A DNA stretch of 64,000 nt from assembly GCF_003790525.1 (NCBI RefSeq), contig NZ_CP033635.1; one strand, given 5' to 3'. Below are positions 38,839 through 46,555 of this stretch, in pieces. A program made the position numbers and the translations under genes. Source of the stretch: Escherichia coli (GTDB taxonomy: Bacteria; Pseudomonadota; Gammaproteobacteria; Enterobacterales; Enterobacteriaceae). Below the pieces are notes generated by a model. That model was given only the letters and a program-made list of their open reading frames with translations, searched no databases and had not been told where the DNA came from. Positions within the stretch are counted from its first letter, which is position 1, and the number at the start of each line of letters is the position of its first letter.

Positions 38839-39145
38839 GATGAAGGAAAAGCCGAGGGGCGTCAACCGAAAAATGACCAATGATGGTGAGGAAAAATCAG
38901 GGAAGTTGAAAAAAACTCATCTTAATTAGAGGCGATAAAAGATTTCTCTATAGCGCAATCCACCTCGCACGTTTTGACTGATATTCTGACAACACAGCGA
39001 CACCTGGGCTTATTCGAAAAACAACGTCCTGCCACCGGATGGTGATGCTAAGGCATCTGATTCGGCCTGCGCCCTCGCGTAGGCCGAATACTGGATCTGC
39101 AAAATCAACTGGTAACAAACAGATGAATCAACTCAATACGTACTT

Positions 39146-40705
39146 TTACTTGATATCTTTCACGCGCATACCGTTGATCTGTTCATCCGTGATGGTGTTA
39201 CCCGCTTTGAAGTAATCAACCACGGCGTGATAAACGTAATAACCGCCCGTTGTGTTACGCGCTTTCCCTTCGGTAAAGGCGGTAAAACCATCTCCACCAT
39301 CAGCAAGGAAACTCTGAGTAGCAATGTGGTAAATCGTCGCATCTTCAATGGGTTTGCCATTCAGAGTCAGCGTGATTACCCGCTGACCAACCGGCTTACT
39401 GCTGTCGTACTTCATTTCCAGGCCTTTCGATACCTGTAAAACGCCATTACTCAAACTTGCGCCGTGTTCCATCAAACTGCGTAATTGTTTACCCGTGAGA
39501 TCCATCGTCACCAGTTCGTTGGGGAACGGGAAGGTACTGATGACGCCACCCATCGTAATTGCACCCGCCGGGATCTCATTGCGAATCCCGCCAGAGTTGG
39601 TTAACGCCAACTGGGTATTTTTACCCGCCGCTGCCAGCAAAGCGTCTGCCGCCAGGTTCCCGAGAGAAGCTGATTCACCATAGGCACGTTTTAGTTCAAC
39701 CGGCGATTGCGCCACCGTTTGTTGCACGACTTCATCCAGCTTTTTGTTCCAACTATCAATCACCTGTTTCGTTTGCGGATCGGGCTTCCACTCATCGGCG
39801 TAAAGGGTTTTAAGCTCGAAGTTTTTCACCGTAAAAGTGTGCGGCTTCTCTTTGTAGTCGAGAACCAGTTTACCGACATCAATCCCGCCGCTGTCAGTGG
39901 AGAGGATTAACGTATTGCCGACTTTAATCGGTTCCGGCGTACCCACATGTGCATGCCCGGTGATCAAAATATCCAACCCTTTCACCTGACTTGCCGTCTG
40001 AATATCTTTATCCAGTGCGCGACGCACATCCGTGCCTCCCATACTGGACTGGCGGGCCGGAACACCTTCGTGGATCAGGGCGACGGTTAGATCAACCTTG
40101 CCTTTGAGTTCATCGATATAACGTTGTAGCCATTTAATTTCATCACGCGCCTCAATACCCACTCGCGTTGCCGCAGATACCGTATCATTAAAGGCAAATA
40201 CACCGTGCAAACCAATCACGCCAATTTTCACGCCGTCTTTTTCAATGATGGTATAGGGCTTATCCCAGAATGATTTACTGCTGTTCTGATAAAAAACATT
40301 ACCCTGCACAATCGGGAATTTTGCCTGACTCAACTGTAATAACGTATTGTCCCAGCCGTGATCAAATTCATGATTACCTATAGTGACCGCATCGAATGGC
40401 ATGGTATTCATAATATCGATAATCGCCTTGCCTTTAGTCAGGCTGCTGATATACGGTCCGGTAAAATAGTCACCCGCATCAAAAAACCAGGTCGCTTTGT
40501 TTTTAGCTTTTTCTTGTTTAACAAGCGTAGTGATATTTGCCCAGCCGCCAATATCCCGTTTACCGTCAGCAATCCACGGCACTTTATAAGGCTCTACATG
40601 TGCATGGAGGTCGTTGGTATAAATGATGGTGACATCTTTGGCGCAAGCCCAAAACGGCAGTGTTAATGCGATACCCGCAGCAAGCATTTTAATTTTCATA
40701 AACAA
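39146..40705 (-). CDS. secreted bifunctional metallophosphatase / 5'-nucleotidase (UshA/CpdB family), paralogue 1
   Basis: 519-aa ORF with N-terminal signal peptide, calcineurin-like motifs ([23 protein letters not shown]) and a C-terminal 5'-nucleotidase-type domain. Absent from this position in K-12 as I recall it. Confidence 0.85.
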
Positions 40706-40831
40706 TCCCTTCCAGTGAGATAAAGGATTGCTACATTACGTTCTGAAAGGCTTTTTTATGTGAGAATACTCACATCCAGAGGCGATAACTGTAGGACAAA
40801 ATCAACGACCTTATGAAATCGTTGGTGATAT

Positions 40832-41959
40832 ATGTCAAATCTGTTTGCGATTAATGTCTGTAAAACGTTCGGTTGTCGAAATTTGGGATTGGCCTCATCG
40901 GAAGATTACAGTTGGCCAGACTATAAACTGGGTTTTCCGGCACTGCACTGCCAGGCATGCGGAAGTTACCCCCCTTTGTTTGATGAACAACAATTTCGTG
41001 ACTGGTTGTCAGTTCACATGACTGCGTGTGCCATAGAAACAGGGCATTTTTGTCCATCATGCTATTGTAAAGAAAAGATTTTTTATGGCCACAACCCGCA
41101 GGGAACACAACGCGTTCAATGCCGTTCATGCAAAAAAGTCTGGACTCCGAAACAGCAGCCAGCAAGAGAAATTACGTATCCCCAGTCCATTGAAACCGTT
41201 CAACTGTTCATGCCCTTTCAAGGAGCCAGCGCAGTACAAAAGCTCTATGTTTTAGTCAGTCTTGACGCCACTCGTGGCAACATCCTTCATCTCTCCACGA
41301 ATTATACGCAACATCAGACAGGAGACAGTCTGCGGTACAGTTACAGAGGCAATACAGAACCAACTGAGCACCATAGCGATATTGTGCAGAGGGTAGATAT
41401 GCGTGAAGCGCAATTCTTGCGCCGGAGCCAGTTCGATGAAATTCAGTATGGCAGTGCTGTGCTCAAGCGCAACGGCAAGGGAGCCATACTACGCCCGGTT
41501 ATCACGGCACACGGGCATTTCAGAATACTGAAAATCCGCTTTCCACATGTCAAAACGCATATCATTTCACACGAATGTTTTCTGAGAGGCGCAATTATTA
41601 CAGCCTGGGCAGATCAGTTCCGCCAACAACAAGGCGAACTTTGGTTCGTAGAAGAAGAAATCAGCGACCGTAACGCTGATATTCCCTGGCATTTTCAGGG
41701 AACGACATACCATGGTTGGTGGCAAAATCAGTGGCAACGCTGGGGGCAGGGGAATAACAGCAAGATGGTCTGCCTGCTCACAGGAGTCTCCTTAGAAAGG
41801 GGCGCAAATGTTTCTCTGGCAACCAGTCGTTGCTTTATCACATGGCTGACAGACCAACACGACTTTACCCAAAGCGCGTTATTATCCGCAGGTCGCGTAA
41901 CGAAAATGCTGACCTCACTGGCGTTAAAATACAATGAATCGCTCACTCCATCTTGTTAG
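40832..41959 (+). CDS. hypothetical Cys-rich protein with N-terminal zinc-ribbon-like motifs
   Basis: 375-aa ORF divergent from paralogue 1; first 100 residues contain C-x4-C, C-x2-C, CPSC-x-C and C-x2-C spacings; remainder unassignable by eye. Confidence 0.55.
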   Translation: MSNLFAINVCKTFGCRNLGLASSEDYSWPDYKLGFPALHCQACGSYPPLFDEQQFRDWLSVHMTACAIETGHFCPSCYCKEKIFYGHNPQGTQRVQCRSCKKVWTPKQQPAREITYPQSIETVQLFMPFQGASAVQKLYVLVSLDATRGNILHLSTNYTQHQTGDSLRYSYRGNTEPTEHHSDIVQRVDMREAQFLRRSQFDEIQYGSAVLKRNGKGAILRPVITAHGHFRILKIRFPHVKTHIISHECFLRGAIITAWADQFRQQQGELWFVEEEISDRNADIPWHFQGTTYHGWWQNQWQRWGQGNNSKMVCLLTGVSLERGANVSLATSRCFITWLTDQHDFTQSALLSAGRVTKMLTSLALKYNESLTPSC

Positions 41960-42188
41960 TCAATACACTCGACAAACGACCATAAATTAATGGGATCACT
42001 ATTTCTCATTTAATTAAATATATGAATATATGACTGAAAAATATAATCACAGTCAATGTTTAATTAATAACATTATTTGTTACCAAGATCACATAATACT
42101 TTCCTGACCTATGCTTACATAAAAATAAGACACGGTGTTCCTTTTATTTAAATAATTCAACCAATGTAACAACCCCTATCAAGGAGGG

Positions 42189-43741
42189 ATGATGAGAACT
42201 GTATTTACGACTTTATCAGTCATATTCAGCGTGATGTTTTCTCACAGTATACTAGCTCAGGACGTTACTATTTATTATACGAATGATATTCACGCACATG
42301 TCAATCCGGCAAAAATTCCCGCTGTTGATAAGAACAGACTTGTAGGTGGTATGGCTAATATTGCAGGCATCGTTAATGAAGCGAAGAAAAAAAACAAAGA
42401 TGTCTTTTTCTTTGATGCAGGCGACTATTTTACCGGTCCGTATATCAGTACCCTGACCAAAGGTGAAGCTATTATTGATATCATGAACACCATGCCCTTT
42501 GATGCGGTGTCCGTTGGTAATCACGAGTTCGATCACGGCGTGCCCAATATGGTATCTCAGTTATCAAAAGCAAAATTCCCCATTCTGCTGGGAAATATTT
42601 ACTACACCGATACAAATAAACCAGTTTGGGATCATCCGTGGACCATTATCGAAAAAGATGGTTTAAAGATTGGTGTGATTGGATTGCATGGTGCATTCGC
42701 TTTCTATGATACAGTCGCGGCAAAAGCACGTGAAGGCGTAGAAGCCAGAGACGAAATTAAATATTTAAATAAAGCACTTGCAGAATTAAAAGGTAAAGTC
42801 GACATTACCGTTTTGCTAATTCACGAAGGTGTTCCGGCGCGTCAATCAAGCTTTGGTAGTAAAGATGTGGAGCGGCTACTACAGGCAGATATTGAGACAG
42901 CTAAAAAAGTGAATGGTGTTGATGTCTTAATTACCGGTCACGCACATGTCGGAACACCGCAACCAATAAAAGTTAATAACACATTAATTGTATCTACCGA
43001 TGCATACGGCACCGACATCGGAAAACTTGTGCTTGATTACAATCCGAAAACAAAGAAAATTGATAGTTATAATGGTGAGTTAATCACCATCTTTGCAGAT
43101 CAATTTAAACCTGACACCATCGTTAAAATACTATCGATAAATGGAGCGTAAAGCTTAACAAAATAACACAGGAAGTTGTCGGCCATTCTCCCGTAGTTTT
43201 AACACGTGAGTATGGCAGTTCTTCTTCTACCGGTAATCTTATTCTGGATGCAATGATGGAAAAAACACCTGATGCCATTGCCGGATTTCAAAATAGCGGT
43301 GGGATGCGAGCTGATTTTCCTAAAGGTGATATCACACTGGGAGATGTTATTAGCACATTCCCCTTTAATAATGACCTCATCGAGATGGATTTGACGGGCC
43401 GCGATCTCAAATCGTTGATGACGCATGCAACCAATCTAACTAACGGTGTGTTACAGGTTTCAAAAAGCGTTGCGGTTGTCTATGACAGCAAAAAACCACT
43501 CAACCAACGGTTAATCTCTTTCACCATTAACGGCAAACCCGTGGAAGATAATCAAACATATCGTATTGCCACGCACTCCTTTTGTGCCAGTGGTGGTGAC
43601 GGTTTTGAAGCATTTTTGAATGGAAAAAATGTGAAGACGATACCGGGAACAACCTCGGCGGAATCTATCATCGATTATTTCAAAAATCATAAACCTGTCA
43701 CCCCAGACTTAACTAAACGAGTCATGGACGTCGCCAAATAA
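42189..43741 (+). pseudogene. frameshifted UshA-family 5'-nucleotidase, paralogue 2
   Basis: ORF 42189..43151 (320 aa; signal peptide and metallophosphatase motifs) stops at taa 43149-43151; homology to paralogues 1 and 3 continues in the +2 frame from about 43127 through ORF 43253..43741. The frame break lies near 43128-43140. Confidence 0.75.
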
Positions 43742-43775
43742 AATATCATTTATCAGTCTATATATTTAACAAGGA

Positions 43776-45401
43776 ATGCGAATGAAAACAGTGCAGCGTA
43801 CTTTACTTGCCGCAACATTGCTGACTATTTTTTCGGTCTCAGTCATGGCGCAGGATGTCACGATTATTTATACAAATGATCTTCACGCTCATGTGGATTC
43901 TTATAAAGTGCCGTATATCGCAGACGGAAAACGCGACATTGGCGGCTTTGCCAATATATCTACTTTAGTAAAACAGGAGAAAGCGAAAAATAAAGCCACC
44001 TTTTATTTTGATGCTGGAGACTATTTCACCGGCCCTTATATCAGCAGTCTGACAAAGGGCGAAGCAATAATTGACATTATGAATACCATGCCTTTTGACG
44101 CAGTATCAATCGGTAATCATGAGTTTGACCATGGCTGGGATAATGCCCTGCGACAATTAAGCAAAGCGAATTTTCCTGTTTTATTGGGCAATGTTTATCA
44201 TAAAGAGAGTGAGAACCCCTTCTGGAACAAGCCCTACACCATCCTGGAAAAAGATGGCATCAAGATTGGTATTATTGGGCTACACGGCGTATTTGCATTT
44301 AATGATACGGTCTCGGAGCTCTCTCTCCAGGGACTCGATAATGACAATAATAACCGCTTTGATAAATCTTCCGAGACCCTTAAGAATCAGGGGATTGAAG
44401 CACGTGATGAAGTGAAGTATTTGCAGCATTATATCGACGAGTTACGTGATAAGGTTGACCTCACTGTGGCGCTGGTTCATGAAGGCGTTCCGGCGCGTCA
44501 GTCCAGCATTGGCAATACAGATGTTAGACGCGCTCTTGATAAAGATATTCAAACCGCTAGCAAGGTGAAAGGATTGGATATTCTGATTACCGGGCATGCC
44601 CACGTCGGAACGCCAGAACCAATCAAAGTCGGCAACACCTTAATCCTTTCAACTGATAGTGGAGGTATCGATATTGGTAAATTAGTCCTTGATGTCAACC
44701 CTACAGCTCGTACCCATAAAATGAAGAGCTTTGAGCTGAAAACAGTTTATGCCGATGAATGGATACCCGATCCAACGACACAAAAAGTTATCAATGGCTG
44801 GAATAAAAAACTGGCGGATATTGTACGCCAACCAGTGGGTGAATCATCGATTGCATTAACTCGCGCCTATGGTGAGTCATCGCAACTAGGCAACCTGTTT
44901 ACCGATGCAATGCTTGTCGCTGCTCCGACTGCACAGATTGCATTGATAAACTCCGGCAGCTTACGTGCGGATATAAATGCAGGCACGATTACCTTTGGCG
45001 ACATTACCAGTACATTCCCCTTCAAGAATGAACTTACTGAAATGGATCTCAGCGGTAAGGATCTGCGTAACCTACTGGAACACGGGGCATCGCTTACCAA
45101 TGGCATCCTGCAAATGTCAAAAGGCGCAGAAATGCGCTATACCCCGCAGAAACCAGTAGGTCAGCGCATAGTATCTTTTAAAATTAATGGTGAAGAGATC
45201 GTTGATACGAATATTTACCATGTTGCAACAACGACTTTCCTTGCACTGGGGGGCGATGGTTTTCTGGCATTCAAAGAAGGGAAAAATGTTCAGGTCCGCG
45301 CCGGAAATAACATGTCCGATGTCGTGATCGATTATTTGAAGAAAGGCCACAAGATTACGCCTGCACAGGTAAATGAAATGCGGGTGGACGTTAGCAAATA
45401 A
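43776..45401 (+). CDS. secreted bifunctional metallophosphatase / 5'-nucleotidase (UshA/CpdB family), paralogue 3
   Basis: 541-aa ORF; signal peptide (…SVMAQD), NDLHAH / GDYFTG / GNHEFDHG motifs; closely similar to paralogue 1 apart from a ~20-aa insertion. Confidence 0.85.
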   Translation: MRMKTVQRTLLAATLLTIFSVSVMAQDVTIIYTNDLHAHVDSYKVPYIADGKRDIGGFANISTLVKQEKAKNKATFYFDAGDYFTGPYISSLTKGEAIIDIMNTMPFDAVSIGNHEFDHGWDNALRQLSKANFPVLLGNVYHKESENPFWNKPYTILEKDGIKIGIIGLHGVFAFNDTVSELSLQGLDNDNNNRFDKSSETLKNQGIEARDEVKYLQHYIDELRDKVDLTVALVHEGVPARQSSIGNTDVRRALDKDIQTASKVKGLDILITGHAHVGTPEPIKVGNTLILSTDSGGIDIGKLVLDVNPTARTHKMKSFELKTVYADEWIPDPTTQKVINGWNKKLADIVRQPVGESSIALTRAYGESSQLGNLFTDAMLVAAPTAQIALINSGSLRADINAGTITFGDITSTFPFKNELTEMDLSGKDLRNLLEHGASLTNGILQMSKGAEMRYTPQKPVGQRIVSFKINGEEIVDTNIYHVATTTFLALGGDGFLAFKEGKNVQVRAGNNMSDVVIDYLKKGHKITPAQVNEMRVDVSK

Positions 45402-45413
45402 TAAAAAAATTAT

Positions 45414-45447
45414 AATGCCATTCATTCACTGAATGGCATTATTTTCT
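45414..45447 (+). terminator. intrinsic terminator after paralogue 3
   Basis: Hairpin aatgccattca ... tgaatggcatt followed by attttc. Confidence 0.65.
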
Positions 45448-45478
45448 CTAAATCAACAATAGATAATGAGATATATTT

Positions 45479-46339
45479 ATGTGTATAAAAAAGCACGGGA
45501 TAGCTTTATCGATTCTATTAATACCTTGCATTGGAAACGCTCAGGAAATTAAAAGTGAGGAAGGCTGGTTACATCAAAGCTTGAATGTCATTGGTCGCAC
45601 AGACTCTCGCTTTGGCCCAAGGCTGACTAACGACCTCTACCCTGAATATACTGTAGCAGGAAGAAAAGACTGGTTTGATTTTTATGGTTATGTTGATCTA
45701 CCAAAATTCTTTGGCGTCGGCAGTCACTATGATGTTGGGATCTGGGATGAGGGCTCACCACTATTTACGGAAATAGAACCTCGGTTTTCCATTGACAAAT
45801 TGACCGGATTAAATCTTGCGTTCGGCCCTTTTAAAGAATGGTTCATTGCAAACAACTATGTCTATGATATGGGTGACAACCAGTCATCCCGGCAAAGTAC
45901 ATGGTATATGGGGCTTGGTACAGATATCGACACGGGTCTACCAATTAAGCTTTCTGCCAATATATACGCCAAGTATCAGTGGCAAAACTATGGTGCCGCT
46001 AATGAAAATGAATGGGACGGATATCGATTCAAAATAAAATATAGCATTCCTCTTACCCATTTATTCGGAGGGCGATTGGTATACAATAGTTTTACTAACT
46101 TTGATTTTGGCTCCGATCTTGCGGACAAATCACACAATAATAAACGAACCAGTAATGCTATTGCTTCAAGCCATATCCTTTCCCTGCTATATGAACACTG
46201 GAAATTTGCATTTACACTACGTTATTTTCACAACGGTGGACAATGGAATGCTGGGGAGAAAGTTAACTTCGGAGATGGTCCATTTGAATTAAAAAACACA
46301 GGATGGGGAACCTATACTACTATTGGTTATCAATTTTAA
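45479..46339 (+). CDS. Tsx-family nucleoside-specific outer-membrane channel
   Basis: 286-aa ORF with signal peptide; strong similarity to E. coli Tsx ([69 protein letters not shown]-terminal ...GYQF). Confidence 0.88.
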
Positions 46340-46518
46340 ATCAGGTGATGTTTTAGATATTTTTACTTAATGCCATTTTGTAATTGTCATAAATAACTTC
46401 ACCATTCACACTGTGAATTCATCGCTCAACACAAAAGCCCCCTTATTACCGGGGCACTGACCAAAGGCAAAATGACAATCAATCACCACCTCCGCAGGAG
46501 GTGGTTTAGAGGTGACAA

Positions 46519-46548
46519 CAAAAGCTGGCAACTGCCAGCTTTTGTTCA
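46519..46548. terminator. bidirectional intrinsic terminator between the Tsx-like gene and metL
   Basis: Inverted repeat caaaagctggca / tgccagcttttg flanked by A/T runs on both strands. Confidence 0.7.
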
Positions 46549-46555
46549 ATAATCA

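Follow-up and report, generated by a model that had tools for sequence, protein, structure and literature searches.

Escherichia coli K-12 has in Tsx a nucleoside-specific channel of the outer membrane, which is also the receptor for phage T6 and colicin K. Nucleotides (mononucleotides) ordinarily enter the periplasm by way of general porins. In Vibrio cholerae, growth on external nucleotides is made possible by the nucleases Xds and Dns, the periplasmic enzymes UshA and CpdB, the Tsx-family channel OmpK and the transporter NupC, the genes for which are scattered and largely under phosphate-starvation control. This article is about a second, accessory Tsx of E. coli, which we call Tsx2, and the company its gene keeps. 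The gene lies at positions 45479–46339 on the plus strand of a 64,000-nucleotide stretch of E. coli DNA (NCBI RefSeq assembly GCF_003790525.1, contig NZ_CP033635.1), which we refer to as the window. It is part of an insert between metF and metL, alongside genes for relatives of 5'-nucleotidases and a transposase-like protein. The island is the same as GR 31 (metL..metF) of the avian pathogenic E. coli (APEC) strain BEN2908, for which a recent paper proposes scavenging in silico (PLoS One 2026, PMC12928451).

Our favoured account, in which we have moderate confidence, is that Tsx2 is a functional accessory 12-stranded Tsx-type channel within an optional, catabolite-controlled module for scavenging nucleotides and nucleosides. 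Tsx2 had been taken for a Tsx paralogue in a preliminary description of this DNA, and so it proved. Its open reading frame (ORF) is intact, starts with ATG and encodes 286 residues, of which residues 2–286 fall on profile positions 6–289 of the 289 in NCBIfam NF011686 ('nucleoside-specific channel-forming protein Tsx'), at 491.8 bits, the curated cutoff being 311; every homologue has PF03502 among its listed domains. With the crystallised E. coli Tsx (1TLW/1TLY/1TLZ), residues 29–286 give an alignment of E = 1e-114, and 168 of 264 positions of the mature protein (~64%) are identical to K-12 Tsx. By heuristic features (charge, hydrophobic core, small residues at −3/−1) the N-terminus resembles a signal peptide of ~21 residues followed by QE, and the C-terminus, ...GYQF, closes on the terminal phenylalanine of outer-membrane barrels. 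An AlphaFold2 (AF2) model has 11 strands at pLDDT 75–93, with residues 1–45, including the expected first strand, unmodelled. According to PMC6499177, mutation of F27, G28, S217, G239 or G240 abolishes nucleoside transport by Tsx. Conservation of the channel residues was a check the preliminary description had called for, and in the 1TLW alignment all five are identical in Tsx2. More broadly, canonical Tsx, represented by 92 orthologues, has 155 positions with conservation of 90% or more, and the tsx2 clade keeps 129 of them. Comparing the window with Nissle 1917 and Citrobacter enshiensis, the ratio of nonsynonymous to synonymous divergence (dN/dS) of tsx2 is 0.05–0.12, that is, the gene is under purifying selection.

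The second strand of evidence is linkage. The insert (38915..46555, ~7.6 kb, delimited by blastn against the K-12 spacer and by base composition) holds five genes: nt5-A, hyp375, nt5-B, nt5-C and tsx2. C. enshiensis has all five, also between metF and metL. At an unrelated locus in Enterobacter hormaechei, a hyp375 homologue (67% identity) is divergent from nt5-A (91%) and accompanied by more nucleotidases and a Tsx paralogue (59%); this second-locus gene set also turns up in E. asburiae, in the C. freundii group and in some Escherichia genomes, its Tsx 56–59% identical. Recurrence of the same set at two loci across genera argues that the linkage is functional. A scan of one genome per species with a 9-sequence hyp375 alignment returned 36 hyp375 loci in about a dozen genera, and wherever the upstream side was present (35 loci) hyp375's divergent neighbour was a nucleotidase gene, 35 times out of 35. 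About two dozen of these loci have a short form, metF-[nt5-A, hyp375]-metL, seen in Citrobacter, Klebsiella, Kosakonia, Phytobacter, Kluyvera, Superficieibacter, Pseudocitrobacter, S. enterica arizonae and Escherichia spp. In 5 loci of the scan the module is the long form with Tsx, at the second locus, and 2 genomes have both loci. E. coli SCPM-O-B-8794 (L026, L031) and Escherichia sp. MOD1-EC7003 (L024, L049) combine the short form with a complete second-locus module; having both loci, such Escherichia genomes possess a pair of hyp375 paralogues, and their extra nucleotidases number as many as five. The second-locus modules of Enterobacter and Citrobacter adjoin assT and a radical-SAM gene.

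A neighbour-joining tree of 109 sequences tells a compatible story. The tsx2 clade has 100% bootstrap support, as does the nucleotidase-linked Tsx clade of Enterobacter and C. freundii, and the two, together with a small clade containing a protein we labelled P0004, split from canonical Tsx at 86%. P0004 is the Tsx paralogue nearest the tsx2 clade from outside (68% identical; L006, Logan SRR35171898 contig 46, 8001–8849). Its gene lies between sprT/endA, endA encoding the periplasmic endonuclease I, and galP, making it a Tsx copy beside a nucleic-acid-degrading enzyme.

How common is the island? Among 5426 complete E. coli genomes, 660 have tsx2 (one chromosomal copy each), 658 have the whole island at 80% coverage or more, 1844 have the nt5-A and hyp375 pair, and 5424 have canonical tsx. 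From these counts the metF–metL locus has three states: empty, as in K-12, short and long. Tsx2 is an extra channel, additional to canonical Tsx and not a replacement for it. Synonymous divergence (dS) from C. enshiensis is 1.1–1.6 for the island genes and ~1.2 for metF, a likeness that would fit old residence at the locus followed by repeated loss.

Three of the island's genes encode paralogues of the 5'-nucleotidase family, all predicted to be exported. nt5-A (39146..40699, minus strand) is intact and encodes 517 residues from the RefSeq ATG, which we used in place of the TTG at 40705 where the mechanical ORF begins. nt5-C (43776..45401, plus strand) is also intact, at 541 residues, with a RefSeq start 6 nt downstream. 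Between them in the map, nt5-B (42189..43741, plus strand) is frameshifted here into ORFs 42189–43151 and 43253–43741. All three have the two-domain architecture PF00149 (Metallophos) plus PF02872 (5_nucleotid_C), Pfam entries listed for their orthologues, and N-termini that are basic, then hydrophobic, with small residues at −3/−1, heuristic features of signal peptides. The preliminary description had called the neighbours of tsx2 signal-peptide-bearing phosphoesterases; the family and the signal-like N-termini stand, with the amendment that one of the enzymes is broken in this genome. nt5-A and hyp375 did not feature in that description.

The metal-binding and catalytic motifs DxHxH, DAGD, GNHEFD, (I/V)HEG and GHAH are complete in nt5-A, nt5-C and a repaired nt5-B, and the C-domain pocket motifs FPF and GGDGF are kept in all three. 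NSGG(I/M)R is intact in nt5-A and nt5-B; nt5-C has NSGSLR instead, and carries a 20-residue insert in its N-domain. nt5-A is ~98% identical to the structural-genomics entries 3IVD/3IVE in the Protein Data Bank (PDB), titled 'Nucleotidase', the construct for which begins at the predicted mature end of nt5-A; these structures contain uridine and cytidine. The paralogues are 62–79% identical in the catalytic N-domain and 48–56% in the substrate-binding C-domain, and the greater divergence of the C-domains suggests that their substrate ranges differ. dN/dS, for the same three-way comparison as tsx2, is ~0.03 for nt5-A and 0.06–0.08 for nt5-C. None comes near an NCBIfam equivalog: UshA scores 154.8 against a cutoff of 600, NadN 121–134 against 436, CpdB ~100 against 486, and SoxB is also far below its cutoff. 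Such scores point to a subfamily of their own. They also leave without specific support the suggestion, made in the preliminary description, that NAD or cyclic nucleotides could be among the substrates, NadN, CpdB and UshA being the relevant yardsticks.

The lesion in nt5-B is the loss of one C at 43125, as judged by alignment with Nissle. That base is present in E. coli SMS-3-5, EC17CM2, Nissle 1917 and C. enshiensis, and restoring it gives a full-length nt5-B with all motifs; the gene is intact (516 residues) in SMS-3-5, Nissle 1917 and C. enshiensis. The window and SMS-3-5 are identical over 8 kb but for this single gap, which rules out an old pseudogene and, equally, a window copied verbatim from SMS-3-5. 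Either the mutation is confined to this genome, or the base was lost through an error of sequencing or assembly. In EC17CM2 (L001, 7379–8076) an IS1 element is inserted in nt5-B of an otherwise identical island, a second and independent inactivation.

nt5-A and hyp375 diverge from a shared region of 132 bp (40700..40831) that contains a perfect CRP box, TGTGAGAATACTCACA, at 40759–40774, ~66–67 bp from both start codons. At this distance a single CRP dimer could serve both of the divergent promoters, each of class-II type. Searching all 64 kb for TGTGA-N6-TCACA with at most one mismatch gave 3 matches, 2 of which are in the island's promoter spacers, 361 bp together. The second of these, TGTTACCAAGATCACA (42078..42093, plus strand, 1 mismatch), is in an AT-rich region of 229 bp upstream of nt5-B; the corresponding aligned site is kept in Nissle 1917, with 1 mismatch, and in C. 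enshiensis, with 2. L005, L007 and L009 each have a single CRP box, which lies in the nt5-A/hyp375 spacer and has at most 1 mismatch, and when 33 orthologous spacers, all ~132 bp, are aligned the CRP box is a conserved block. Other blocks are invariant, CTAC.TTACGTTCTGAAAG and CAAAATCAACGACC-N5-AAATCGTTGGT, and within them are the inverted repeats CCTTTCAG/CTGAAAGG and CAACGA/TCGTTG; these blocks are candidate operators. The conserved CRP boxes predict catabolite control of the module. With the gene set recurring at two loci and purifying selection on the intact genes, they favour the functional grouping that the preliminary description had suggested, as far as comparison of genomes can.

Further along, the gap between nt5-C and tsx2 contains a hairpin with a 13-bp stem and a T-rich run (45412..45442, plus strand), with a folding energy of −20.5 kcal/mol and z = −4.25. 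C. enshiensis keeps the hairpin through a compensatory C-G to T-A change. We read it as an intercistronic attenuator or an mRNA-stabilising element. A search of the whole island against Rfam, with E values allowed up to 1, gave no match and hence no riboswitch or leader of a known kind. Beyond tsx2, two GC-rich hairpins (46485..46546, minus strand) downstream of the convergent metL are likely metL terminators, which likely also close the tsx2 transcription unit.

That leaves hyp375 (40832..41959, plus strand), a Cys-rich cytoplasmic protein of 375 residues that we predict to be the regulator of the module. Sequence searches gave it no family: Pfam Zn_ribbon_InsA came in at E = 0.043 and NF033558 (IS1) at 20.4 bits against a cutoff of 100. 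Its own family is small, with 123 representatives among 1.8 billion. The AF2 model is confident (pLDDT 94, pTM 0.93) and has two zinc ribbons at the N-terminus (C10/C15/C40/C43 and C74/C77/C97/C100), a mixed alpha/beta core and a helical C-terminus; the modelled core matches the RNase-H-like fold of DDE transposases and integrases. Relatives in the AlphaFold database (AFDB), from Enterobacteriaceae, Serratia, Proteus, Vibrio and Photobacterium, are entered as uncharacterised 'cytoplasmic protein' or 'IS1 family transposase'. hyp375 is like the IS1 transposase (InsA/InsAB') in placing an InsA-type zinc ribbon, which stays below threshold in sequence searches, ahead of an RNase-H-like core. There are differences, too. 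hyp375 adds an N-terminal zinc ribbon and a C-terminal helical bundle, its gene occupies one place per genome with synteny conserved across genera, has no flanking or terminal repeats, and adjoins nucleotide and nucleoside genes. A DDE triad is missing too: no D/E is invariant, and acidity is conserved only at 145 (72%), 202 (85%) and 248 (100%). Conserved residues include R198, H229, H247, W297 and W301. The simplest reading is a domesticated transposase that has become a DNA-binding regulator of envelope scavenging genes. Within E. coli it is unusually divergent. Between forms of the island the hyp375 protein is 89% and 74% identical (window versus the L002 and L003 alleles), and between Nissle and C. 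enshiensis its dN is 0.26. The adjacent nt5-A stays 97–98% identical; by these comparisons the regulator-like protein evolves much faster than its partner.

Distant homologues of hyp375 (29–41% identity) keep similar company: six of the seven we examined adjoin genes for the uptake or breakdown of nucleotides or nucleosides. Two separate ones neighbour a divergent 5'-nucleotidase, another a NupC-type transporter and a nucleoside phosphorylase, another a DeoB-like mutase, a phosphorylase and a NupG-type symporter. A homologue at 29% identity (L011/L012; GCA_006755885.1, AAGEJW010000026.1; 2023–7389) is divergent from an operon for a general porin, a class-B acid phosphatase and a class-II cyclic-nucleotide phosphodiesterase, possibly a cyclic-nucleotide scavenging module of the same design. 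We put forward, tentatively and at rather less than even odds, a broader idea: that hyp375 founds an undescribed family of transposase-derived regulators in Enterobacteriaceae and Vibrionaceae, which join a zinc ribbon of IS1/InsA type to an RNase-H fold and act with cAMP-CRP on envelope scavenging modules built from outer-membrane channels (Tsx, porins), periplasmic phosphoesterases, nucleoside transporters and phosphorylases. Such regulators would perhaps sense nucleosides or nucleotides, in our island working with cAMP-CRP on the conserved 132-bp divergent region. Tsx2 would then be the channel arm of an undescribed regulon, its specificity maybe shifted to charged nucleotides.

Returning to the account we favour, its steps can be laid out. 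High cAMP-CRP, as in carbon limitation, would turn on the divergent nt5-A and hyp375 promoters and the nt5-B–nt5-C–tsx2 unit, with hyp375, a zinc-ribbon protein of transposase descent, acting as the DNA-binding regulator specific to the module. Nucleotides in the periplasm would be dephosphorylated by up to three Sec-exported 5'-nucleotidase paralogues. Tsx2, beside canonical Tsx, would increase the permeability of the outer membrane to nucleosides at low concentration, and core nucleoside transporters of the inner membrane would complete uptake.

A number of points weigh against this scheme. The steps do not form a straight pathway: what Tsx passes is nucleosides, but the substrates of the periplasmic enzymes are nucleotides, and since these ordinarily enter by general porins the enzymes have no obvious need of the channel. 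Nucleoside genes controlled by CytR typically have tandem CRP sites flanking a CytR operator, as at K-12 tsx P2; the tsx2 island differs in giving no sign of that architecture, with one box per spacer at up to two mismatches, in a search that did not formally extend to CytR operators. The low-GC island may be largely silenced. hyp375 is read as a regulator from its context and fold, and the context has an exception: one homologue (29%; L018, GCA_032052055.1, 2519–7628) belongs to a non-nucleotide operon encoding a short Tsx-family channel as well as a sulfatase, its radical-SAM/SPASM maturase and a fragment of an arylsulfotransferase, which may hint at a link with sulfated substrates. A literature search for experimental work on the island genes found only the descriptive BEN2908 paper, and turned up no data on expression, activity or phenotype for any of them. 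Then there is the barrel itself. Twenty-six canonical near-invariant positions differ in Tsx2, clustered on strands beta-1, beta-2, beta-11 and beta-12, and the clustering of changes on adjacent staves means that the specificity of Tsx2 may differ from that of Tsx.

The barrel leads to the best of the alternatives, namely that Tsx2 has been respecialised, so that it admits anionic nucleotides or modified or phosphorylated nucleosides and feeds the co-encoded nucleotidases instead of duplicating Tsx. We regard this as unlikely, but it has substance. Identity to K-12 Tsx is 99/142 over all strands and 20/27 in the periplasmic turns, and is very unevenly spread: beta-6 (13/13) and loop L4 (7/7) are unchanged and beta-3 to beta-8 almost identical, and the most divergent staves are beta-1 (7/13), beta-2 (3/8), beta-11 (4/11) and beta-12 (8/13), which adjoin in the barrel and so put the divergence on one face. 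E40T (E40R in the second clade), S22R and H228K shift the charge by removing a negative or adding a positive one, and F42A, W13L and V232T are further substitutions; several are on the polar register and presumably face the lumen. Inheritance of the channel with periplasmic nucleotidases at two independent loci also suits a channel that feeds them. Against this, the constriction residues defined genetically are unchanged, and mononucleotides already pass general porins. The lumen-facing assignment comes from strand alternation in the sequence and not from 1TLY coordinates, and the first strand is outside the AF2 model.

Less probable by some way is that the module deals in signals and not in food, acting on signalling nucleotides of the host or community (ATP/ADP to adenosine; cyclic di- or oligonucleotides) as a trait for colonisation or immune modulation of the kind associated with extraintestinal pathogenic E. 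coli (ExPEC). The long form is carried by the probiotic Nissle 1917 and by strains from birds and humans, the BEN2908 paper lists the region as common to intestinal and extraintestinal model strains, and the enzyme family includes ecto-5'-nucleotidases that generate adenosine. The island's enzymes, however, appear to be periplasmic rather than anchored at the surface; many environmental and commensal Enterobacteriaceae carry the short form; and nutrition is indicated by the CRP boxes and by the genes for uptake and catabolism that partner hyp375 homologues. We think this account improbable.

Slightly more doubtful again is that Tsx2 is mainly a spare nucleoside channel, one that evades Tsx-targeting phages, colicin K or albicidin and would let its carriers lose or down-regulate canonical tsx and still take up nucleosides. 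The extracellular loops are certainly the most divergent part of the protein (49/87 identical, plus 13 gapped columns). Two of the changes touch determinants of T6 reception, a 5-residue deletion within 198–207 and Asn254 to Pro, with Asn249 kept. Canonical tsx, though, is retained in all but two of the genomes surveyed, the conserved linkage to nucleotidases and hyp375 would go unexplained, and L1, where mutations affect sensitivity to albicidin and phage, is partly conserved. What the loops do bear on is the thought in the preliminary description that an extra Tsx could alter susceptibility to T6. With those determinants not conserved, Tsx2 is unlikely to be a T6 receptor, and probably no receptor for the classical Tsx phages, which is relevant to reasoning about phage therapy and resistance. 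If the island is active, uptake of nucleoside antibiotics and albicidin could change. Finally, that the island genes are neighbours by accident of insertion, with no joint function, would suit low-GC accessory DNA of strain-variable content (empty, short, long), but we give it hardly any credence given the same combination at two chromosomal loci in several genera, with Tsx 56–59% identical, strong purifying selection and a conserved control region.

The setting of the island is simply described. In the window the order is metF, insert, metL, metB, metJ, yiiX, rpmE and priA. By blastn, the insert replaces 199 bp of the K-12 spacer, from the metF promoter region to the metL stop codon, and its GC content is 0.34–0.48 against 0.54–0.60 in the flanks. 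We saw no direct repeats, IS ends or tRNA signature at its borders, the only repeats found being the paralogues. RefSeq annotation of identical DNA in other strains agrees with the genes called here. In SMS-3-5 (L057, NC_010498.1, 7501–8346) tsx2 is entered in RefSeq as a partial pseudogene, 'missing C-terminus'; all 861 bp are identical to the window ORF and to the EC17CM2 gene annotated as intact, and the label looks like an annotation artefact. In an island-free K-12 derivative (L004, 1641–1775) RefSeq has a hypothetical ORF of 44 residues in the metF–metL spacer, and the spacer holding this ORF in island-free strains is partly what the island replaces.

What does all this mean for the biology of E. 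coli? About 1 in 8 complete genomes carry, by prediction, an additional Tsx channel together with as many as three further periplasmic nucleotidases. If active, the island changes what these strains can extract from settings rich in nucleic acid, such as gut mucus, urine and the biofilm matrix. hyp375, for its part, may be a clean case of a transposase turned host regulator, complete with a compact and conserved control region.

Seen beside what has been described already, the kind of system is a familiar one: a Tsx-type channel, periplasmic nucleotidases and nucleoside transporters, as in K-12 and V. cholerae. Tsx2 is of the same family as K-12 Tsx (b0411; 1TLY/1TLW/1TLZ), with the C-terminal Phe and the same modelled strand layout in common, as well as the five residues critical for transport, beta-6 and L4. 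It differs in the 5-residue deletion, which is in L5, N254P, which is in L6, and the 26 altered near-invariant positions, and in being accessory (12% of genomes) and inside a nucleotidase operon, K-12 Tsx being core. The island's enzymes share with UshA, NadN, CpdB and YfkN their two-domain architecture, catalytic motifs, the Phe clamp/GGDGF pocket and predicted signal peptides, yet form a separate subfamily of three tandem-type paralogues whose sole studied member is 3IVD/3IVE. V. cholerae, too, pairs periplasmic nucleotide phosphatases with a Tsx-family channel and inner-membrane nucleoside transporters; the E. coli island, unlike the dispersed V. cholerae genes, is clustered, apparently CRP-controlled, accessory and equipped with a dedicated transposase-derived protein. 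The account of GR 31 in BEN2908 is descriptive and, in its accessible text, does not cover the 375-residue gene, the CRP boxes, the second locus, the short form or the channel and receptor residues (PMC12928451). New here are the linkage at two loci, the predicted CRP control, the lost T6 determinants, the clustered substitutions in the barrel and the transposase-derived partner family.

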